IMG/VR virus record: IMGVR_UViG_2541047826_000010
DNA length: 34,194 nucleotides
Reading direction: 5' to 3' (one strand)
Source of the DNA: a virus
Lineage: Duplodnaviria; Heunggongvirae; Uroviricota; Caudoviricetes
Below, in pieces: positions 1-28,973 of the stretch. Under the pieces are notes generated by a model. That model had not been told where the DNA came from. It did no database searches and worked only from the letters and a program-made list of their open reading frames with translations. Each line of letters opens with the position of its first letter. Positions within the stretch are counted from its first letter, which is position 1. Made by a program: the position numbers and the translations under genes.

Positions 1-1064
<1,064 letters not shown>

Positions 1065-7856: not shown

Positions 7857-8771
7857 TTATGCCTCCAGCCCGTTAATCTGTGGCGTCGGCTCAGTCAGCC
7901 ATGAAGGCGCGGCATTGCCTGTTGGCTCATCCGGCAGGTCAAATGTGGAGCGCAGGCTACGCGCTGTGCTTTCCAGTTGACAGACCAGGCCTGCCATGAA
8001 GTCTCTGGGGGTATCAATCATGTTTTCAGCACAATATGCGCACAGCGTCTCAAAAGCGCTGGACAGTCGAACGGCGATAGCAGATTCCGCCTCAACCGCT
8101 AATGCTGTCACTTCCGCCCGCAGCTTCTTAACCTCTTCATCAGGCTCAGGCGGCTGAATACGGGATTTCTTCTCCAGTCTGGTGGAGAGTGAGTCTATTT
8201 TTTCATTTTTGTCAGCGAGTACGCGCTGTTGTGCTGCGTTGGTTTCGCGCGCTTCGCGCAGGGCCTGACGCAATTCACGTACTGACATGCGATCAACGTC
8301 GTCAAGCGTCAGGCCGGCAACTGTGCCGCCGTCGGCCAATTCATCAAGTTCTTCATTATCCAGAACCATCAGGTCGTACAGTTTGGCTTTCCCCAAAACG
8401 CTCAACGTTGAGCGTTTTGTTGGCTCATCACCTTCTCCCAAAAACTTCATACTGGCTTGCATCATGCGGCGAGCAACTTGTGGTGCAAGTCCGAGTTCAT
8501 TTTCTAAAATGTTTGTAAAATCACCGTGTGGCTCATTTTCTTTTAAGATGATCAGCCGCTTACCCGCTTCCAGCATAGATTCAGCACTCTGCGCCATATA
8601 AAAACGTGCTTCGTGAACAATGCGATCACGTTCATAAGGCAGTCCATCACCAAACTGCTGCATAATTTCCATGCGATGCTGTGTCATAGCGTTCAAATTG
8701 ACATTGATGTTATCTGACAGCGGAACCTCAACATTCAGTTCAGTGTTAACGGGTGATTTGGTGCGTCCCAT
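7857..8771 (-). CDS. DUF3102-like early protein (coiled-coil)
   Basis: 304 aa. The N-terminal region resembles the DUF3102 proteins found just upstream of transposases in Mu-like phages. The central part is a long coiled coil. SD AAGGAG. Confidence 0.65.
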   Translation of the reverse strand: MGRTKSPVNTELNVEVPLSDNINVNLNAMTQHRMEIMQQFGDGLPYERDRIVHEARFYMAQSAESMLEAGKRLIILKENEPHGDFTNILENELGLAPQVARRMMQASMKFLGEGDEPTKRSTLSVLGKAKLYDLMVLDNEELDELADGGTVAGLTLDDVDRMSVRELRQALREARETNAAQQRVLADKNEKIDSLSTRLEKKSRIQPPEPDEEVKKLRAEVTALAVEAESAIAVRLSSAFETLCAYCAENMIDTPRDFMAGLVCQLESTARSLRSTFDLPDEPTGNAAPSWLTEPTPQINGLEA

Positions 8772-8781
8772 TGATTACTCC

Positions 8782-9090
8782 TTACAAACGACTACCTGAA
8801 ATAACTCGTTGGTTGATTTCGTTAATACGATCCTGTGCACGCGCCATCTCGTGACTGTGAGCCATGGCGATCTGTAGTAACTGGATTCCCGGTGCGAAAC
8901 GTCCGTTCTCTAATTTCATGGCCAGTCCCTCTTCAATAAGGGTATTAAGTGCTCGATTGATATTCGCCGGGGACTCCCCCAGGGCTGATGCCAGTTCACC
9001 GTTAGAAACACCGTTCAGAGCATGACCGCGTAGAGCTTTGAGTACACGTAGGATGCGGGTCCCAGAACTGGAAATATTTACTTTACTCAT
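8782..9090 (-). CDS. stand-alone IclR-type winged-HTH protein
   Basis: Internal ATG at 9090 of ORF 8782..9153. The product begins MSKVNISSSGTRILRVLKALRGHALNGVSNGELASALGESPANINRALNTL, which is IclR N-terminal HTH-like. There is no effector domain (102 aa in total). Confidence 0.6.
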   Translation of the reverse strand: MSKVNISSSGTRILRVLKALRGHALNGVSNGELASALGESPANINRALNTLIEEGLAMKLENGRFAPGIQLLQIAMAHSHEMARAQDRINEINQRVISGSRL

Positions 9091-9105
9091 GTCACATTTC
9101 CATTT

Positions 9106-9139
9106 TTGCAATATGTGATAACCTGTTGCATATGTGGAA
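9106..9139. repeat. two direct copies of TTGCA(A)TATGTG (minus-strand CACATAT core), candidate secondary operator
   Basis: TTGCAATATGTG lies at 9106-9117 and TTGCATATGTG at 9126-9136. The 10-mer ATATGTGATA (9111-9120) recurs exactly at 9368-9377 in the promoter region. Confidence 0.4.
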
Positions 9140-9142
9140 AAT

Positions 9143-9331
9143 TTATGCCGCATTTGACGTGGGTTTTAATCCCAGTTTTACGGCAATTTCATGGGCTTTG
9201 CCGTAACGAGCTTTGGTCTGTCCATTGAGAACACGATAGACCTCATTGCGGCTGTAGCCGTGTTCTTCGGCCCAGCGGGTAAACGTGATACCACGCTGAC
9301 GGAAGAGATTTTTAACTTGTTCGGAAGTCAT
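9143..9331 (-). CDS. Ner/Cro-like small HTH regulator, first gene of the early operon
   Basis: 62 aa. HTH FTRWAEEHGYSRNEVYRVLNG. SD AAGGAG. Divergent from the repressor gene. Confidence 0.65.
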   Translation of the reverse strand: MTSEQVKNLFRQRGITFTRWAEEHGYSRNEVYRVLNGQTKARYGKAHEIAVKLGLKPTSNAA

Positions 9332-9367
9332 TGTTGTCTCCTTTGTTGATGCAATGATGTTTGTTTT

Positions 9368-9377
9368 ATATGTGATA
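9368..9377. repeat. third copy of ATATGTGATA, overlapping the predicted early-transcript start
   Basis: Exact 10-mer repeat of 9111-9120, just downstream of the predicted -10 element of the early promoter. Confidence 0.4.
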
Positions 9378-9378
9378 G

Positions 9379-9407
9379 ATTATGAGAACTATTGTTCTCA
9401 TTGTCAA
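9379..9407 (-). promoter_or_regulatory. early promoter (Pe analogue): TTGACA-17 nt-CATAAT on the minus strand
   Basis: The minus strand reads TTGACA (plus-strand coordinates 9402-9407), a 17-nt spacer, then CATAAT (9379-9384). It lies about 45 nt upstream of the Ner-like ATG at 9331. Confidence 0.6.
9382..9401. promoter_or_regulatory. perfect palindromic operator candidate ATGAGAAC-TATT-GTTCTCAT
   Basis: 8-bp arms with a 4-bp spacer, read directly from the sequence. It fills the spacer and part of the -10 of the predicted early promoter. Confidence 0.55.
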
Positions 9408-9417
9408 TGAGGTTTAT

Positions 9418-9843
9418 GTGAATTTTGATTCTCTTTGCGCGTCGCGGTTCAAAGCTGAGCGTTCGCGGTTATCACTCAAGCAGGCTGAAGTAGCAGCCCT
9501 TTGTGGCGTTTCAAGAGAAATGTGGGGGAAATATGAACGAGGGGTTGCTGTTCCCGGAGGTGAGTTACTTGCAGCCTTTGCAAGAATTGGGGCCAATGTA
9601 CAGTTCATTCTTACCGGGGAGTCATCAGGTATAACTTTATCACGTGATGAAATGGAGTTACTGCAGCACTACCGGCAGGCACCATTACAGGTCAAAGGTT
9701 CAGTTTTGTCGGCCTTGACTACTGGCTCCTCCAGAGAACGGGCGGAACAGGTTATTCATGGAGATGTTCTGGGGAATGTTATCAAAGGTAACGTAACCAT
9801 AGGAACAGGTGGAATAATGAACAAAAATACCAAGAGAAGATGA
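9418..9843 (+). CDS. XRE/Cro-C1-type prophage repressor (no S24 peptidase domain)
   Basis: HTH LSLKQAEVAALCGVSREMWGKYERG ... NVQFILTGE. I prefer the GTG at 9418, which follows GAGG by 5 nt. The ATG at 9382 lies inside the operator palindrome. The C-terminal tail carries HGDVLGNVIKGNVTIGTGG. Confidence 0.8.
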   Translation: MNFDSLCASRFKAERSRLSLKQAEVAALCGVSREMWGKYERGVAVPGGELLAAFARIGANVQFILTGESSGITLSRDEMELLQHYRQAPLQVKGSVLSALTTGSSRERAEQVIHGDVLGNVIKGNVTIGTGGIMNKNTKRR

Positions 9844-10826
9844 GTAAAGAGAAGCAAACAGTTAACGGGGATGTGGGTAACGTTGTCAGCGGTGATGTTA
9901 CCATTCATAACTATTCTGCTGACATACTTCCTTCGGCCCAGCAACCAATTTCGTTGCTGCAAAAACGCGATTTACACAGATTGATGGATGAATTGGTTGA
10001 TCTGGGGGAAAGTAAGCGCGAGCTATGGATGACGATCCACACGAAACTTAATACCAAAACAGTTAATGAAATGACTGCGGCTGATTATCATGGTGCGGTT
10101 GAGATCCTTCAGAGATATGCACAACAGATCCAGAATATGAAGGACTGTAATCTTCTGGTCAGCAAAATAATGGCGCTTACTGACCCTGGGTATCGTCTTG
10201 ACCGTGACAGATACTGTCTGAAGCATTTCGGTACAACCCATCTTAAAGGCCTAGACAAAGAGCAGTTGCAGGCTGTGTTTGGTTATTTTGATGATCTGCT
10301 GAATATTCGTGATGAGAGTAAAACTCTATCACCTCCATCGGAAAGCGGTGCAAAATCAGTCGCAACTGTACCAACCAGAAGCCGGAAGCCTCATGTAGTA
10401 GTGTTGGGGGGAGTGTTAGTTCTTGTAGCAATATTTTTCGTGGGAATGATTGTGTTCGCTGGTAAATGGGGAAATGCCAAAGCAGTAGCTTCTACTGAAA
10501 CCAGCGTTTTTAACATTAAAACCAACGATAAAATAATAGAAGATTCCATCCCCGCACTGCGCAGCATGTTTCCAGGGTTAAATAAGTACTCAGATGATTT
10601 CCATTCGGTTTCAAGCTACAAGCAAAAAACGGGCTGGCATACCCTTAAATTTACTGTATCAGCAAAGGCATCCGTCCCCGAAAATTATAGTGTTAAGGGC
10701 AAGGTTTGTTACATTAACATAAGCCCTGATGGTAGTTATGCTCGGGTTTTGACTGCTCCATGTCGTTCACTGCTACTTGATCAGCAAAGCACTCCTGACA
10801 GTAAATACCGTTTTATTCTTAAATAG
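9840..10826 (+). CDS. bitopic membrane protein of unknown function, translationally coupled to the repressor
   Basis: 328 aa. ATGA overlap with the repressor stop (9840-9843). The N-terminus carries NGDVGNVVSGDVTIHN. A single TM helix spans about aa 185-208 (HVVVLGGVLVLVAIFFVGMIVFAG) and is preceded by RSRKPH. The C-terminal domain of about 120 aa is predicted periplasmic. GC is low. Confidence 0.7.
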   Translation: MSKEKQTVNGDVGNVVSGDVTIHNYSADILPSAQQPISLLQKRDLHRLMDELVDLGESKRELWMTIHTKLNTKTVNEMTAADYHGAVEILQRYAQQIQNMKDCNLLVSKIMALTDPGYRLDRDRYCLKHFGTTHLKGLDKEQLQAVFGYFDDLLNIRDESKTLSPPSESGAKSVATVPTRSRKPHVVVLGGVLVLVAIFFVGMIVFAGKWGNAKAVASTETSVFNIKTNDKIIEDSIPALRSMFPGLNKYSDDFHSVSSYKQKTGWHTLKFTVSAKASVPENYSVKGKVCYINISPDGSYARVLTAPCRSLLLDQQSTPDSKYRFILK

Positions 10827-10916
10827 AAAATAACAGCTGAATTACCATGGGATCAGAAAAAAGACAAAGGCGGCATCATGCTGCGTTCTGAAATTTTAAT
10901 GTAAAAGGTGATGAAC

Positions 10917-11498
10917 ATGGCAGGGATTCAGGTTATCGCAGGAAGTTTTCCTAAAGGGTGGGCAAGCATGGGGTTCGGTACCATCGTGTTTGCCAAAAAA
11001 CCAAAACAAGGCTTTCCTGAAAATATTGTATTAAATCTGAAAGAAGAGCTTTTATCGATTGAACTTGCGGATAGTGAAGAGGAAAGCCGTATAGGTAAGG
11101 CGGCAGGCGCAGGTTTGCTTGGTGGATTAATCTTTGGTGGTGCAGGGTTGGTCATTGGAGGTTTGCTTGGTGCGGCGGACAAGACGAAAAAAACTATCAC
11201 TTTTAAGGCAATGTTTACGGGAAATAGGTTACTTCTGGCTAAAACAGATTCAAAAACTTTTGTAAAACTTCAGTCAATTGCTGCTGATAATGCCCATAAC
11301 GCATCTGTAATCAACATGAAGCAAACTAACAGGGGCGATGTTTCTTCTCGTAAACAACTAACAGAAAATCCACAGCAGCAAGACTTACCTGCGCCCGCTA
11401 CAACAGTAAAAATGACTGCCAAAGATAAGTTAGAATCGGCTCTTGGGCTGGGAATCATCGTTATAGCTGTTTGGGCAATAATACACTTCTTTTTTTAG
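10917..11498 (+). CDS. glycine-zipper membrane protein of unknown function
   Basis: The ATG at 10917 lies 6 nt after AAGGTG; alternative starts are 10908 and 10911. Glycine-zipper segment AAGAGLLGGLIFGGAGLVIGGLLGAA spans aa 61-87. A C-terminal TM anchor reads LGLGIIVIAVWAIIHFFF. Confidence 0.7.
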   Translation: MAGIQVIAGSFPKGWASMGFGTIVFAKKPKQGFPENIVLNLKEELLSIELADSEEESRIGKAAGAGLLGGLIFGGAGLVIGGLLGAADKTKKTITFKAMFTGNRLLLAKTDSKTFVKLQSIAADNAHNASVINMKQTNRGDVSSRKQLTENPQQQDLPAPATTVKMTAKDKLESALGLGIIVIAVWAIIHFFF

Positions 11499-11500
11499 TG

Positions 11501-11524
11501 CAGCCCTTCAGGGCTGTTTCTGTT
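11501..11524 (+). terminator. intrinsic terminator closing the repressor operon
   Basis: CAGCCC-TTCA-GGGCTG stem-loop followed by TTTCTGTT, starting 3 nt after the stop codon. Confidence 0.7.
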
Positions 11525-11535
11525 CAGGAGGTATC

Positions 11536-12012
11536 TTAAGGATTATCCGGGGCGTTTTCCTGTTTGCCGTACTTCGGAGACGAACAACATTCTGTTGGCT
11601 GACCGGTGAGTTTACGTAACTCCTTCATGAGCAGCTCCTGATCGTAAACTGTCATCAGTGCCGCAATGGTGGCATGCAGTGCATCGGGCAGTATCCAGGG
11701 TTGCCGGCCCGTGGGGCATATAACATCCAGCAGCTCATTCGTCCGACAGATACGCTCCTCGCCGTATGACAACAGGCCCTGTCCCGTGTATTCCTCCAGC
11801 CTGATCACTGTGCCACCCCGTGGCTTCTGCCAGGTCGTCAGATCTTCGCCATTCATACGGCGCTCATTCTCCACGTCAGCAGCATCGACAATGACGCTGT
11901 TTCCGAGTTCCTGTTTCACCATCTCTTCTATCCGCGCCAGTACGTAACTTTTACCGCTGCCCACAGGACCGGACACAGTGACAGTGATGACCGGATTCAG
12001 TGTGTGCGTCAT
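11536..12012 (-). CDS. small P-loop NTPase (hypothetical), solitary minus-strand gene
   Basis: 158 aa. Walker A GPVGSGKS at aa 15-22. Possible Walker B VIVDAAD. SD GAGGAG. Convergent with the cassette and divergent from the late operon. Confidence 0.65.
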   Translation of the reverse strand: MTHTLNPVITVTVSGPVGSGKSYVLARIEEMVKQELGNSVIVDAADVENERRMNGEDLTTWQKPRGGTVIRLEEYTGQGLLSYGEERICRTNELLDVICPTGRQPWILPDALHATIAALMTVYDQELLMKELRKLTGQPTECCSSPKYGKQENAPDNP

Positions 12013-12073
12013 ATCGTATTCTCCTCTGTGAATAATTCATCGTTTATCCTGCACATCCCGTATCCCCGGCTCT

Positions 12074-12092
12074 CTTAACGCGCTTTAAAATC
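12074..12092 (+). promoter_or_regulatory. late-promoter motif copy 1 (CTTAA-N5-TTTAAAATC), upstream of the lysis genes
   Basis: One of four copies of YTTAA-N5-WTTAAWATC. The embedded -10-like hexamer TAAAAT lies at 12086-12091. There is no -35 match. It ends 50 nt before the holin ATG. Confidence 0.45.
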
Positions 12093-12142
12093 CTTCGCAC
12101 CCTGTATTTGTGATGCTGTCTCCACCAGATAAGGAGACACAC

Positions 12143-12493
12143 ATGAAAAACCTGAAAAAATTCATTCCCCCTGTTAAAAAACCTCGCCTCAGCGGCTGGC
12201 TGCTGACCTCAGTGCTGTTGCTGGGCACCATCGCTCTGGTCTCACCACAGCAGCTGCCTGTTGTGATCTACAAGCTGGCACTCATCACGCTGGCAGCAGT
12301 GCTGGGTTACTGGCTTGACCGTTCGCTCTTCCCCAAAGCCCGTCCCGGTCAGTACCTGAAACATGACGACAGGCTGATGGCTGAAGGGCGTTTCCCGGTA
12401 CAGACCGGCCTTCACCTGGTGTTTTCTGCTGCGTTAATCCGCCGTGCACTGATTGTTGCAGCGGTCTGCCTGGCTGTTGCGATGGGGCTTTAA
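12143..12493 (+). CDS. holin (2-3 TM class, putative)
   Basis: I chose the ATG at 12143 because it follows AAGGAG. The 116-aa product has three hydrophobic segments. It lies immediately upstream of the endolysin. Confidence 0.6.
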   Translation: MKNLKKFIPPVKKPRLSGWLLTSVLLLGTIALVSPQQLPVVIYKLALITLAAVLGYWLDRSLFPKARPGQYLKHDDRLMAEGRFPVQTGLHLVFSAALIRRALIVAAVCLAVAMGL

Positions 12494-12495
12494 TC

Positions 12496-13236
12496 ATGAA
12501 CTGGCCGCAGATCACCTGGATTGTATGCATGTCCCTGAAACTGGCTTTCGAAGCCTTTCGGGTCTTCATCAGAACCGAACGCCTGTCAGTCCGCGCCGGG
12601 ACCTTTCTGGTTCATATGGCATGGGTATTCTTTGTCGCAATGTTGCTCTGGTGTGGCGGCTTTTTTAGCCAGGCATGCGCAGCACAACCTCCGCAGGCTG
12701 CGCTGCAGTATCGCGATGATGTGATCCGTAATGCCCGGCTTGAATGGGGACTGTCTGCGCCGGTGGCCGATTTCGCCGCGCAACTGCATCAGGAAAGCGG
12801 CTGGCGACCTGATGCGATCTCGCCGGCTGGCGCTCAGGGACTGGCGCAGTTCATGCCTGCCACTGCCGACTGGATAAGCCAGTTGATACCGATGCTGAGC
12901 AGTCGTGAGCCGTTTAATCCGGCATGGGCTATCCGGGCGCTGGTCAGCTATGACCGCTGGCTGTGGCAGCGTGTCAGCGCCGCCAGTGACTGCGAGCGTA
13001 TGGCCATGACACTGTCGGGCTATAACGGTGGTCTGGGCTGGGTACAACGGGACAGGCGGCTTGCATCACAGAAAGGTCTGGACAGCACCCGCTGGTTCGG
13101 ACATGTCGCCACGGTGAATGCCGGACGCAATGCGGCCAGCTGGCGGGAGAACCGCCATTATCCGCAGCGCATCCTGCGCGAACTGGCACCGCGATATCTC
13201 ACATGGGGAGGCAGCAGTTGTGTGGCATCTGGTTAA
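12496..13236 (+). CDS. lytic transglycosylase (SLT family) endolysin with N-terminal hydrophobic signal/anchor
   Basis: Family-1 LT motifs are HQESGW (catalytic E-S), GAQGLAQFMP and SGYNGG. The N-terminal hydrophobic stretch MAWVFFVAMLLWCGGFFSQACA is present. The start codon is uncertain (12496 or the internal ATG at 12616). Confidence 0.85.
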   Translation: MNWPQITWIVCMSLKLAFEAFRVFIRTERLSVRAGTFLVHMAWVFFVAMLLWCGGFFSQACAAQPPQAALQYRDDVIRNARLEWGLSAPVADFAAQLHQESGWRPDAISPAGAQGLAQFMPATADWISQLIPMLSSREPFNPAWAIRALVSYDRWLWQRVSAASDCERMAMTLSGYNGGLGWVQRDRRLASQKGLDSTRWFGHVATVNAGRNAASWRENRHYPQRILRELAPRYLTWGGSSCVASG

Positions 13237-26021: not shown

Positions 26022-28973
26022 ATGTCGGGACAGTTTTCAGTCGGCGTTGTTATCGGCGGGATGATTGGTAGCACATTCCGTTCTGCAATGAGCGGTACCC
26101 GCCGTGCGCTTGATTCCCTGAGCGATACCTCACGCCGCCTGCAGGAACGTCAGAACGCTTTAACCCGTGCAACAGAACGTTATGGTCAACTGGGTTCTTC
26201 CCGGATGCAGCATCTCAACAGCGAGCTGCTGCGGGTAAGCCGCACCATGGAGCAAATTGAGCGCCAGCAGCGCCGTCTGTCAGCGGCATCCGCTACCAGT
26301 GATGCGCTGAAAGCTAACCGCATGGCGCTGTATGGTCAGGGGATTGAAGCGTATGGCATGGCACAGACTGTTTATCATACGGTTTCCCCTGCCGTTCAGC
26401 AGTCCATGTCTTTTCAGGACAAAATGATTGATATGTCGATCACCGCAAAATATGACAATAAAACGCGGGATGCACTTGCCGGACAGATAAAAGGCTGGGC
26501 GCTTAAATACAATCAGTATCAGGATGAGCTGCAGGAGGCGGTGGGTTCACTCATCAGCGACAATATTGATAATGTGTCAGATATCGGTTTTCTGATGCCG
26601 GATATTGCCCGCGCGGCAACGGCAACACGCACGTCTGCTCAGGACTGGGCAAAAGTGGCCGCAGTCTGGCAAAACTCCCTGAAAGGTGCGGCCAGAGATT
26701 TTGGTGCCGTTCAGAATATTATGGCTTATGCCGGTGACCAGGGGTCATTTGAAATCCCGGATCAGGTCAAGTGGATGCAGTCCCTGGCCCCAATGATGGC
26801 GGGTATTGCCAGTGGAAAAGAGGCTGTTGCTGAAATCGGGGCCAGTCTCCAGATAGCAAAAATCGGTGCAGGTTCCACCGACGAAGCAGCCAATAATTTT
26901 AAAAACTTTCTTACCAAAATTTTTGCCCGCGATACTCAGAAACAGTTTGCTGATCTGGGTATTGATTTGCAGGGATCTATTGCGAGTTATAAAGCTGCGG
27001 GGATCTCTCCGATTGAAGGGATGTTGAGTGTTATAGAACGTTACCTCAATGCCAAAAGCCCCGAAGCGCTGGCCGGCTTCAAATCAGCCATGAAAATAAA
27101 GAATGATACGGCAAGAGATGAGGCACTTCAGGCTCTGGCGAAAAACTTTGGTCTGGGCGATATGTTCGCGGATATGCAGGTCATGGCATTTATCCGCCCG
27201 ATGCTGGCCAACATGGACAGATATCGAGAGATCCGTGCCGGTGCTCTCAGGGCTGCGGATAACGATTTGCTTGCCAGTGCTTATGATCAGCGGCTGAAAT
27301 CTCCCCTTGAAGCCACTAAAGCACTTATGGTCAGCAGTCGTGATCTGGCAATTACGCTGGGCGATCAATTAGCTCCATCTTTTATTTCTCTGACTCAGGA
27401 ACTGCTTCCACTCATTCAGGGGGCAAAACACTGGGTAGCGACTCACCCGCAATTTGTCAGTGGGGCTTTTAAGCTCATCAGTGCGCTCCTTGCGATTAAG
27501 ATAGCGACTGTTGGTCTCAAACTGGGGCTGAATCTCCTTATTTCCCCCTTTGTAAGTGTCTGGAAAAATGCTGTTTTACTTCGGGCCAACTGGCTTCGTC
27601 TGTCGCTCGCACTGGGGCAAGGCGGTAAGCTCCGCTGGCTGGTGACCGGATTTAGCGCCGTCGCCAAAGGAGCCAGAACACTGAGTGGCGTGCTCTCCGG
27701 GGGGCTGGTTCGCGGAATTATGCTCGCCGGACGTGCTGTTCTCTGGATTGGACGTGCGCTGATGATGAATCCCATCGGTCTCGTTATCACCGCTGTCGCG
27801 GCAGCAGCTTACCTTATCTACCGCAACTGGGGGGCAGTCAGTGGCTGGTTTAAACAGCGCTGGGCAGACATTCAGGAAGCCTTTAACGGCGGCATTGTGG
27901 GAATTGGTAAGTTGCTGATTAACTGGTCGCCGGCAGGCCTGCTCTATAAAGCCTTTGCGGCTGCGCTGAAATATTTCGGCGTTGCTCTGCCGGCAAAGTT
28001 CACCGACTTCGGTGGCCATCTTATCGACGGTCTGATTAACGGTATCAAAAACAAATGGGGGTCGCTCAAATCCAGTGTAACCGGAATGGGTGACAGCATC
28101 AGTAGCTGGTTTAAACAGTGCTGGGCTGACATTCAGGAAGCCTTTAACGGCGGTATCGCGGGAACTGGTAAGCTGCTGATTAACTGGTCGCCGGCAGGTC
28201 TGCTCTATAAAGCCTTTGCAGCTGCGCTGAAATATCTTGGTGTTGATCTGCCGGCAAAGTTCACCGACTTCGGTGGCCATCTTGTCGACGGTCTGATTAA
28301 CGGTATCAAAAACAAATGGGAGTCGCTCAAATCCAGTGTAACCGGAATGGGTGACAGCATCAGTGGCTGGTTCAGCGAAAAGCTGGGCATTCATTCGCCG
28401 AGCCGCGTGTTTATGGGCTTTGGTGACAATATCGCGCAGGGGGCCGCCATTGGCCTGCAGCGGACCACTCCGCTTGCAGCTCTGGCCGGGCAGCGAATGG
28501 CCAGTGAACTGCTCCCCAAAATGCCCGTGAGCATTCAGGGGCCAGAAATACGGGATAACACTTCAGGTGTTCGCTTCAGTATGCCGTTGCCCGATATCAA
28601 TGGGTTTATGTCGTCTGCTAAAAATGCGATCGGAGCCGTAATCAATAGTTTGTCTTCCATGCCCGCTATTCCGCTCTCCACCCGGGCATCGATTTTACCA
28701 GGGCAACGTCTGGCAAATGAGATGACACCGGATGTTCCCCGTATCCCCTCGCCTGAAATCCTGGCTGCCGGATATTCAGGCCGTGGTGCAGCTGCAACCG
28801 GCGGTGGAACGTCTGGTGGTATCCAGGTCAGCTTTAATCCTCAGTTTTTCCTCAATGGCAGGGAAACCACAGCGCCTGCCGGACTGACTGGCGCCCTGAA
28901 TATGAGCCTGCATGAGCTGGAAAAAATGCTGGAGCGTCTGCTGGCTCAGAAACAACGTAAGGAGTACCGCTGA
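26022..28973 (+). CDS. tail tape measure protein
   Basis: 983 aa. Position after the chaperone pair. Long helical and hydrophobic central region. SD GGAGG. Confidence 0.9.
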   Translation: MSGQFSVGVVIGGMIGSTFRSAMSGTRRALDSLSDTSRRLQERQNALTRATERYGQLGSSRMQHLNSELLRVSRTMEQIERQQRRLSAASATSDALKANRMALYGQGIEAYGMAQTVYHTVSPAVQQSMSFQDKMIDMSITAKYDNKTRDALAGQIKGWALKYNQYQDELQEAVGSLISDNIDNVSDIGFLMPDIARAATATRTSAQDWAKVAAVWQNSLKGAARDFGAVQNIMAYAGDQGSFEIPDQVKWMQSLAPMMAGIASGKEAVAEIGASLQIAKIGAGSTDEAANNFKNFLTKIFARDTQKQFADLGIDLQGSIASYKAAGISPIEGMLSVIERYLNAKSPEALAGFKSAMKIKNDTARDEALQALAKNFGLGDMFADMQVMAFIRPMLANMDRYREIRAGALRAADNDLLASAYDQRLKSPLEATKALMVSSRDLAITLGDQLAPSFISLTQELLPLIQGAKHWVATHPQFVSGAFKLISALLAIKIATVGLKLGLNLLISPFVSVWKNAVLLRANWLRLSLALGQGGKLRWLVTGFSAVAKGARTLSGVLSGGLVRGIMLAGRAVLWIGRALMMNPIGLVITAVAAAAYLIYRNWGAVSGWFKQRWADIQEAFNGGIVGIGKLLINWSPAGLLYKAFAAALKYFGVALPAKFTDFGGHLIDGLINGIKNKWGSLKSSVTGMGDSISSWFKQCWADIQEAFNGGIAGTGKLLINWSPAGLLYKAFAAALKYLGVDLPAKFTDFGGHLVDGLINGIKNKWESLKSSVTGMGDSISGWFSEKLGIHSPSRVFMGFGDNIAQGAAIGLQRTTPLAALAGQRMASELLPKMPVSIQGPEIRDNTSGVRFSMPLPDINGFMSSAKNAIGAVINSLSSMPAIPLSTRASILPGQRLANEMTPDVPRIPSPEILAAGYSGRGAAATGGGTSGGIQVSFNPQFFLNGRETTAPAGLTGALNMSLHELEKMLERLLAQKQRKEYR
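27846..28367 (+). repeat. in-frame tandem duplication, 2 x 261 bp (87 aa), inside the tape-measure gene
   Basis: Copy 1 is 27846-28106 and copy 2 is 28107-28367. My hand alignment gives about 16 mismatches in 261 nt and 8 of 87 aa differences. Both copies begin WFKQ(R/C)WADIQEAFNGG. Confidence 0.9.

Follow-up and report, generated by a model that had tools for sequence, protein, structure and literature searches.

A predicted repressor and membrane protein pair with matching terminal tags in the immunity region of an Escherichia coli prophage

The DNA analyzed here is a 34,194-nucleotide stretch of viral sequence (IMG/VR record IMGVR_UViG_2541047826_000010; hereafter, the window). Between positions 9421 and 11527 of its plus strand lie a gene for a predicted helix-turn-helix (HTH) repressor, two genes for membrane proteins, gene 1 and gene 2, and a terminator-like hairpin. 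A sequence-only reading of this region had proposed that genes 1 and 2 constitute a Rex-like exclusion or abortive-infection cassette. Re-examination of the sequence confirmed the positions it gave for the open reading frames (ORFs), the ATGA overlap, the transmembrane (TM) segments and the glycine zipper. It also revealed a new feature: the C-terminal tail of the repressor and the N-terminus of gene 1 carry the same Gly/Asn/Val tag of approximately 15-20 residues. The features of the block were as follows.

9379..9407, minus strand: sigma-70-like promoter TTGACA-17-CATAAT, with 11 of 12 consensus matches (a consensus match only)
9421..9843, plus strand: predicted repressor of the Xre/P22-C2 HTH type (Pfam HTH_31/HTH_3), divergent from the ner/transposase operon
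9748..9807, plus strand: repressor C-terminal tag QVIHGDVLGNVIKGNVTIGT (local alignment and six-frame regular-expression search)
9840..10826, plus strand: gene 1, predicted bitopic inner-membrane protein of 328 residues (phrog_10002, E = 8e-228)
9858..9905, plus strand: gene 1 N-terminal tag QTVNGDVGNVVSGDVTI (local alignment and six-frame regular-expression search)
9921..10295, plus strand: predicted cytoplasmic helical Flk_N-like domain of gene 1, residues ~28-152 (profile, BLASTP and AlphaFold2)
10392..10460, plus strand: predicted TM helix of gene 1, residues ~185-207 (Kyte-Doolittle hydropathy; AlphaFold2 helix 188-207)
10500..10823, plus strand: predicted periplasmic alpha/beta domain of gene 1, residues ~221-328, with two invariant Cys (AlphaFold2; HMMER homologues)
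10917..11498, plus strand: gene 2, 193-residue protein of the PH_gly_zipper family (phrog_12025; precomputed PF27000 matches on homologues)
11500..11527, plus strand: intrinsic-terminator-like hairpin GCAGCCC-TTCA-GGGCTGT with a T-rich tail, at the end of the operon

The layout behind the repressor was as originally described: genes 1 and 2 share its orientation, and no terminator was predicted between the repressor and 11500. The start codon of gene 1 (ATG, 9840-9842) shares two nucleotides with the stop codon of the upstream HTH gene (TGA, 9841-9843), and this ATGA overlap is predicted to couple translation of gene 1 to that of the repressor. The spacer between genes 1 and 2 contained no significant RNA structure, and an Rfam search of 8500-12500 found no RNA family. 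Based on the shared orientation, the overlap with the stop codon and the absence of a predicted terminator before 11500, expression of the two genes in lysogens is plausible. The hairpin at the end of the block has a GC-rich 7-bp stem (11500-11517) followed by TTTCTGTT, and its folding energy corresponds to z = −4.4 relative to shuffled sequences. The earlier description of a clean terminator holds for the hairpin and its T-rich tail, but the T-tract is imperfect. Similarly, a GC content of 42-46% was confirmed across the cassette (45.9% for the repressor, 42.9% for gene 1 and 42.3% for gene 2, versus 54.5% in the window as a whole and 55-60% in the late genes), but the low GC content is not confined to the two genes. 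It starts at ~8500 and also spans the early regulators and the repressor.

The tags were first evaluated within the window. The repressor ends in ...EQVIHGDVLGNVIKGNVTIGTGGIMNKNTKRR, and gene 1 starts with MSKEKQTVNGDVGNVVSGDVTIHNY. Local alignment of the repressor tail with the N-terminus of gene 1 yielded a score of 55, as compared to 20.7 ± 4.3 for shuffled sequences (z = 8). When the tag was expressed as a regular expression and used to search the six-frame translation of the 34-kb window, only two matches were obtained, at 9760-9795 and 9867-9899. Among 18 gene 1 homologues of 44-82% identity, tag residues G10, G13-G18, V20 and I22 are invariant, and the adjacent linker varies.

The same arrangement occurs in other prophages. 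The last 45 residues of the repressor were compared with the first 45 residues of its partner in 50 non-identical pairs from BcepMu-like and P2-like prophages, using shuffled tails as controls. The scores ranged from 36 to 79, versus ~21 ± 4 for the shuffled tails, with a median z of 8.6. The tags fell into three classes: NRxAGRD(F/Y), FHGxVGQ..GDINN and GDVGNV..GDVTI. In a class-by-class matrix, scores on the diagonal were 61.6, 47.2 and 54.4, and those off the diagonal were 17-33. V versus I/L at one position within class B co-varies across 20 of 22 repressor/partner pairs. In P2-like prophages (phage 520873, for example), the end of the repressor is ...NISGGNNRIAGRDYNETKGR and the partner, a tail-anchored Flk_N protein encoded between the repressor and the integrase, starts with MAVNSNGSNNRVAGRDFHEKN. 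The corresponding sequences in BcepMu-like prophages of GC-rich hosts are ...QTFHGSVGQSVAGNVTNKSGVTFNVGD... and MSQDFHGDVGQAAAGDINNYGVSISL. The genes upstream of the partners encode Xre HTH proteins in 8 of 10 representatives.

We also considered how the two tags might have come to match. The tags of the window have 11 identical residues, just 4 of which use the same codon; the codon is shared by 38% of identical tag residues. This low codon sharing points to selection of the match at the protein level and rules out a DNA repeat or gene conversion as its origin. The gaps between the repressor and partner genes are −4, 1, 2, 3, 9, 11, 15 and 18 nucleotides, placing the genes in differing frames, which rules out programmed recoding or a read-through fusion of the two proteins. 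Classes A and C both circulate within E. coli, and the third class occurs in other hosts. The presence of two tags in one host species favors pair-specific recognition over a single host factor.

The tag is not limited to one membrane protein per locus. In five class-B loci, a third membrane protein of ~130 residues, encoded in the same operon, starts with the class-B tag (e.g. MGNQSFNGDVGQVAGGNINNYG; L102 3803-4195, L107 3502-3891, L109 3492-3899, also L110 and L111). The tag thus behaves like a modular label that different membrane proteins can carry at the N-terminus. A fourth Flk_N subgroup (L125, L126 1066-2225; P0062, P0072, P0076, P0104 and P0117) has a long N-terminal extension, ..DE(K/R)LAKLA..L, which resembles, by eye, an internal repressor segment, DVERLARIAGML, and not the terminal tag.

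The repressor comprises a variable HTH domain, a conserved middle helix (LSRDEMELLQHYRQAPLQVKGSVLSALTTG), the C-terminal tag and a basic end. Its closest solved relative in a sequence search of the PDB was the N-domain of P22 C2 (E = 1e-4). The middle helix, ELL..FR.APL.VKAA.LAALTAG, is common to the repressors, and the HTH domains are freely swapped. Specifically, in the repressors of E. coli A33, Yersinia and Serratia, the HTH half has been exchanged and the C-terminal half retained. No S24 or LexA-like autocleavage domain was found by Pfam in representatives of the upstream genes. The repressor would have 140 residues if translated from GTG 9421 and 153 from ATG 9382. The minus-strand promoter faces the early operon (ner-like gene and transposase) and covers the annotated ATG. 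The GTG is preceded by a Shine-Dalgarno sequence, GAGG, at 9410-9413, and the 423-nucleotide (140-residue) form is the one called by NCBI in strain A33. As a near-consensus early promoter sits on ATG 9382, the repressor probably starts at GTG 9421. The repressor promoter and the early promoter probably overlap face to face.

The TM segment of gene 1 divides the protein into an N-terminal part of ~184 residues and a C-terminal part of ~120 residues. As the single hydrophobic segment, at residues ~185-207, it agrees with the topology proposed earlier: a cytoplasmic part, one TM helix and a periplasmic part. The C-terminal part is predicted to be periplasmic because R/K residues precede the TM helix, Cys residues C290 and C308 are invariant, and homologues of this part are lipoproteins. 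AlphaFold2 predicted two confident domains, a helical one at residues 31-160 and an alpha/beta one at residues 221-328, both with a predicted local distance difference test (pLDDT) score >90. The Flk_N domain (PF27202) is precomputed on gene 1 homologues, where it is marked weak. The NCBIfam Flk model PRK10715 matched residues 19-147 (E = 2.9e-12, 46.6 bits), BLASTP against Flk of E. coli K-12 yielded 25% identity across residues 28-152 (125 residues), and hhalign returned a probability of 75%. This domain appears to be a distant homologue of that of the flagellar regulator Flk. The equivalence does not extend to full-length Flk: the score of 46.6 bits compares with an equivalog cut-off of 353, and the gene, in a prophage locus, has no pdxB neighbor.

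An exhaustive HMMER search with gene 1 returned 114 matches and revealed that its two halves are separate modules. Approximately 60 clusters are tail-anchored proteins of 165-290 residues that have only the N-terminal tag, Flk_N and a TM helix, and approximately 45 are lipoproteins of ~130-370 residues that have only the C-terminal domain. In 15 of 30 class-B loci, a lipoprotein gene lies directly 3' of the partner gene; in the type represented by the window, the two are fused. The lipoprotein also occurs behind other repressors without a Flk_N partner, in 'Klebsiella phage KP12' and in Mixta, so the periplasmic domain of gene 1 is a separable unit. These partnerless lipoproteins weaken the notion of an obligate tie between the partner and the periplasmic domain. 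The gene 1 homologues form 24 clusters, all from Enterobacterales. Fold searches with the gene 1 domains yielded no convincing relative, the sequence search of the PDB returned nothing for gene 1 or gene 2, and no protease domain or motif was found in gene 1 using Pfam or NCBIfam. Further architectures exist in the family: in a Burkholderia savannae prophage (L129 5007-5984), the Flk_N partner has two tag-like elements, KQEFNKPVGQAIQ... and VSGDVAGRDIVNV, together with a long coiled coil, a TM helix and a small Cys-containing periplasmic tail.

Gene 2 is preceded by a Shine-Dalgarno sequence, AGGTGA, that suits a start at 10917; a GTG at 10908 is also possible. Its glycine zipper, AAGAGLLGGLIFGGAGLVIGGLLGAA, spans residues 62-87 (nucleotides 11100-11177), and hydropathy places a C-terminal hydrophobic helix at residues ~172-193 (nucleotides ~11430-11495). 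The zipper, beta-rich flanks and C-terminal TM helix attributed to gene 2 from its sequence were all recovered, the flanks from a low-confidence AlphaFold2 model (pLDDT 36). In this model, four strands are followed by the zipper, two or three strands, a helix and the TM helix, an order that fits a PH-like beta-sandwich fold with an inserted zipper. The precomputed PF27000 matches are on the homologues P0026 (97% identity) and P0032 (71% identity; match marked weak). In a Burkholderia homologue, a SHOCT domain takes the place of the C-terminal TM helix. Two further homologues, P0030 and P0031, have in-frame zipper deletions of 11 and 16 residues, which suggests that the repetitive GGx-coding DNA slips and that zipper length is tolerated.

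The position that gene 2 occupies is variable. The slot behind gene 1 homologues holds gene 2 in the window, a 203-residue protein and a DUF2441 protein in E. coli FEA3, a 249-residue membrane protein in Yersinia and a 94-residue protein or a lipoprotein in other contigs (L083/L084). In Serratia, there is nothing between the gene 1 homologue and a Dam gene. Conversely, in Citrobacter-type prophages (179 contigs), gene 2 homologues lie directly behind an unrelated CI-type repressor without gene 1. The alternative cargo genes of the slot had no PADLOC or defense-related Pfam match. Cargo at post-immunity loci (L004 2648-4244, L007 7070-7819, L083 4005-4289, L084 4135-4662 and L002 1699-3976) includes C-domain lipoproteins and Dam methylase with small ORFs. 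The best explanation for gene 2 is that it is independently mobile cargo in a hypervariable slot after the immunity genes.

As to its function, gene 2 probably encodes a protein of lysogenic conversion that acts on the envelope. Exclusion would be the likeliest role; exclusion or abortive infection by membrane damage is plausible. Gene 2 may also act in lysis control, as the Burkholderia homologue sits just upstream of a holin gene. Exclusion proteins such as P22 SieA, TP-J34 Ltp, phi80/N15 Cor and HK97 gp15 are small membrane or lipoprotein products that lysogens make from genes beside the immunity genes. Gene 2 fits this pattern, as do the periplasmic domain of gene 1 and the stand-alone lipoproteins related to it. 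No homology to SieA, Ltp, Cor or HK97 gp15 was found in Pfam, the PHROG annotation or PADLOC.

Positions 9300-11600 are 100% identical to prophages in many E. coli chromosomes. In one of these, AR_0015, the element adjoins grxA. The window is assigned to a BcepMu-like transposable prophage of E. coli because of the gene content on both strands, listed here with a truncated gene that borders the block.

11536..12012, minus strand: truncated P-loop gene ('ABC transporter ATPase'), 158 of 242 codons, outside the module
Other minus-strand genes: ner-like gene, IclR-like HTH gene, DUF3102, DDE transposase, ATPase, Gam and Mor
Other plus-strand genes: holin, SLT lysin, Mu-type head genes and myovirus tail genes

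Host genes (ybjM and grxA) occupy the first ~770 nucleotides of the window (101-765 and ~800-1060), as judged by mapping onto the annotated AR_0015 chromosome, and the left end of the prophage lies somewhere between grxA and the Mor-like activator gene. At 26022-28973, the window has an intact tape-measure-like ORF of 983 residues. This ORF is 261 nucleotides shorter than the matching span in the AR_0015 prophage, which is 100% identical over 8700-12700 and in which NCBI annotates the tape-measure span as two pseudogene fragments.

The whole cassette was present in ~97-99 of 5,426 complete E. coli genomes. In ~460 related E. coli prophages, only the flanks match, and the segment from ~9384 to ~11535 is replaced by other immunity modules containing a different, shorter repressor, Dam methylase and other genes. 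The left junction of the exchanged segment is at ~9384 and the right junction at ~11530-11540, with DNA homology resuming at ~11541. The truncated P-loop gene is 92% identical over 157 residues to a 242-residue homologue in E. coli E41-1 and matches phrog_3787 across positions 1-157 of 242. Its break coincides with the end of the low-GC block and thus marks a recombination junction. One exchanged mosaic block therefore comprises the repressor, both membrane-protein genes and the terminator. The proposal that the region was horizontally acquired is upheld by the swapping of the block in relatives and by the truncation of the P-loop gene at the right junction. The class-A pair of P2-like prophages occurred in 514 of the 5,426 genomes, including Shiga toxin-producing E. 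coli (STEC) of serogroups O26 and O103; in STEC, the annotation of its genes goes no further than 'helix-turn-helix' and 'membrane protein'. Overall, about a tenth of E. coli genomes carry a repressor and tagged partner.

In the best explanation, a BcepMu-like prophage carries the distal part of its lysogeny (immunity) operon here, and the region is assembled from separable units. The constant partner of gene 1 is a repressor with the same C-terminal half, and not gene 2. Gene 1 is coupled to the repressor, as indicated by the ATGA overlap and by the occurrence of the same pair in A33, Yersinia and Serratia despite the HTH swap. We propose that gene 1 serves the repressor as a membrane-anchored partner or regulator and acts through the tag, a reading whose chances we judge to be evenly balanced. 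According to this proposal, gene 1 would recognize the repressor at the inner membrane via homotypic beta-strand association of the two tags, possibly of an amyloid-like nature. The partner could then tether, sequester or convert the repressor at the membrane, setting or switching the amount of active repressor. It would be a co-expressed, signal-dependent accessory, acting as a repressor or an anti-repressor, that may either inactivate or stabilize the repressor. The variable tags would insulate co-resident prophages from each other, and the periplasmic domain of gene 1 might provide an input. Searches of the literature for PF27202, the WP accessions, Flk together with prophage, and repressor together with amyloid or membrane anchor turned up no account of the module.

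Co-encoded partners of repressors have precedent: in ImmR/ImmA-type modules, the repressor ImmR is co-transcribed with its anti-repressor ImmA, a metalloprotease activated by a signal, and int follows. In the P2-like class-A loci, an Xre repressor is similarly followed by a second gene of the operon and then an integrase. Unlike ImmA, gene 1 has no COG2856/M78-type peptidase according to Pfam and NCBIfam and is predicted to be membrane-anchored, and ImmR and ImmA are not known to share a tag.

A more specific version of the proposal, which we consider unlikely, is that the matched tags are an amyloid-like signaling motif operating by prion-type templating. Matched C- and N-terminal motifs in adjacent collinear genes, often overlapping, are the signature of amyloid signaling, and the E. 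coli prophage abortive-infection pair Bab/Agp (BASS11) shows this layout (bioRxiv 10.1101/2020.01.06.895854; 10.1101/2024.11.07.622273). Indeed, the pairs studied here resemble the fungal HET-S/NWD2, bacterial Bell/NLR (with BASS) and Bab/Agp pairs in several respects. They are collinear neighbors that overlap or are separated by a tiny gap; the upstream protein ends, and the downstream one begins, with a short Gly/Asn/Gln/Val-rich motif; and several motif families co-vary within pairs. Bab/Agp is, moreover, located in a prophage. All 50 pairs have collinear C- and N-terminal motifs of at least 15 residues, with gaps of −4 to +18 nucleotides. In composition, the tags are Gly-broken stretches of V/I/N/D/Q. 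In contrast to the known pairs, the upstream protein is a DNA-binding Xre repressor and not a pore-forming Bell/HeLo or TIR effector, and the downstream position is taken by a small membrane protein with Flk_N in place of an NLR/STAND or TPR-GreAB-PIN sensor. Consistent with this, Pfam identified no NLR/STAND or TGP sensor and no Bell, HeLo, TIR or CHAT effector in the repressor or gene 1. In neither of the two preprints (bioRxiv 10.1101/2020.01.06.895854; 10.1101/2024.11.07.622273) is a repressor or Flk_N protein described as a member of such pairs. The output would also differ, being gene regulation rather than cell death. In this version, clustering or activation at the envelope would lead the Flk_N protein to convert the repressor tail and so to sequester or inactivate the repressor; the result would be a self-propagating induction switch for P2-like and BcepMu-like prophages.

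Several points weigh against a regulatory partnership of gene 1 and the repressor. The HTH protein is assigned as the prophage repressor from its position and family. Residues 1-30 of gene 1, which contain the tag, are disordered in the AlphaFold2 model (pLDDT ~42), which neither favors nor disfavors binding. The similarity of the tags could reflect a shared binding site for a third party or a degron. The co-variation is seen across three or four classes of related sequences, to which phylogenetic inertia contributes. The class-D subgroup (L125/L126) has no terminal tag, only the looser internal resemblance. The partner may be dispensable for a prophage, as the copy in phage 520873 (L016, NC_049344; 3284-3896), a Flk_N-like gene between repressor gp04 and the integrase that is unannotated in RefSeq, is frameshifted; its intact counterparts are those of the 514 genomes. 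Finally, a BcepMu-like prophage of Burkholderia savannae has a repressor, a Flk_N protein and a PH_gly_zipper protein with a SHOCT end, followed by a holin. The recurrence of this trio makes a link between gene 1 and gene 2 possible.

The trio also bears on the function originally put forward, in which gene 1 would be a sensor and gene 2 a glycine-zipper pore, forming a Rex-like two-component system for exclusion or abortive infection by membrane permeabilization within the repressor operon. This reading, which we regard as quite unlikely, is consistent with the common strand and operon position of the genes behind the repressor, the single terminator after gene 2, the membrane location predicted for both proteins, the length of the zipper and the gene order in B. 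savannae. The diversity of alternative cargo in the slot is also as found in defense hotspots. The lambda cI-rexA-rexB system likewise has genes behind the prophage repressor in a transcript of the lysogen, as predicted here, and likewise involves membrane proteins. Of its two Rex proteins, RexA is cytoplasmic and RexB spans the membrane with four TM helices. Gene 2, by comparison, has a glycine zipper and one TM helix and is separable, and gene 1 is bitopic, with its tag tying it to the repressor. No sequence or profile similarity to Rex was detected: neither RexA nor RexB was matched in Pfam-A or PADLOC at E ≤ 1, and the PHROG matches were to families of unknown function only. With the 5,027 models of PADLOC-DB 2.0, whose coverage excludes systems described after 2023, gene 1 matched only PDC-M19B (E = 0.014 over 40 residues) and gene 2 matched none. 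Beyond Flk_N, nothing indicative of Rex or another known defense system was identified in Pfam, PADLOC or NCBIfam. The proteins do belong to recognized families, contrary to the first impression, namely PHROGs 10002 and 12025 and Pfam Flk_N and PH_gly_zipper, all functionally uncharacterized for these proteins. The two genes also do not travel as a two-component module, gene 2 occurring without gene 1 in Citrobacter and relatives, and gene 1 with other downstream genes or none in FEA3, Yersinia, Serratia, Salmonella-type and L083/L084 loci. Moreover, a Rex-like system would leave the conserved link of gene 1 to the repressor, including the shared tag, unexplained.

An alternative that does address the tag, and that we hold to be improbable, is that it is a common degron or host-factor site, recognized for example by a membrane-bound or AAA+ protease, with gene 1 serving as a membrane decoy that stabilizes lysogeny. 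Lambda CIII, which protects CII from FtsH, would be an analogue. The same terminal, exposed, disordered peptide on two co-expressed proteins would suit such a decoy, translational coupling would fix the ratio of partner to repressor, and repressors without an S24 autocleavage domain need another route of inactivation. However, a single host factor should hold the tag constant, whereas classes A and C differ within E. coli and a third class occurs elsewhere. Further, no protease-related motif was recognized.

It is distinctly improbable, in our estimation, that gene 2 and, by virtue of its periplasmic domain, gene 1 are independent envelope cargo, acting for example in exclusion of DNA entry, and that the tag is a functionless relic of an old partial duplication. 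The hypervariability of the slot and the occurrence of the periplasmic domain alone, as a lipoprotein in the post-repressor slot of KP12 and Mixta, are in keeping with this scenario. Nevertheless, the gene 1 tag is invariant down to 44% identity while the adjacent linker varies, matching is kept across three divergent classes despite synonymous divergence, and most partners are tail-anchored proteins without any periplasmic domain.

Finally, the homology to Flk raises the question of a flagellar role. Flk is a cytoplasmic protein, anchored in the membrane at its C-terminus, that holds the flagellar export gate in its early mode and works via protein contacts, as investigated in a two-hybrid test against FlhA-C (PMC13344023). 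Like gene 1, it has a helical Flk_N domain on the cytoplasmic face of the inner membrane with a single TM helix C-terminal to it; unlike gene 1, which continues into a periplasmic domain of ~120 residues, it has 331-333 residues and ends at the anchor (PMC13344023). Flk also lacks the N-terminal tag and is encoded on the chromosome, adjoining pdxB. That gene 1 is a phage-borne Flk analogue acting on the type III export gate (FlhA/FlhB), altering motility or blocking flagellotropic phages, is highly improbable: the domain homology over residues 19-147 and the action of Flk at the gate speak for it, but the identity is only 25%, the bit score is far below the equivalog cut-off, the repressor-matched tag of the phage family is absent from Flk, and no flagellar genes are near gene 1 in the locus.

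For annotation, these results split the 'cassette' into a repressor-partner unit and an independent cargo gene, and they assign gene 2 and the periplasmic domain of gene 1 to the hypervariable post-immunity slot of BcepMu-like prophages. This slot looks like a cargo hotspot of interest for exclusion functions. Pairs of a repressor and a membrane partner marked by a co-varying tag are widespread, undescribed and unstudied. For repressors without an autocleavage domain, a membrane protein that copies the repressor's own tail is a concrete candidate for control of inactivation, and the partner could link the state of the envelope to the lysis-lysogeny decision. If the tags template in an amyloid-like manner, gene regulation would be added to the reach of a mechanism that has until now been linked with cell-death effectors; this would be the first amyloid signaling to control a transcription factor rather than a death effector.

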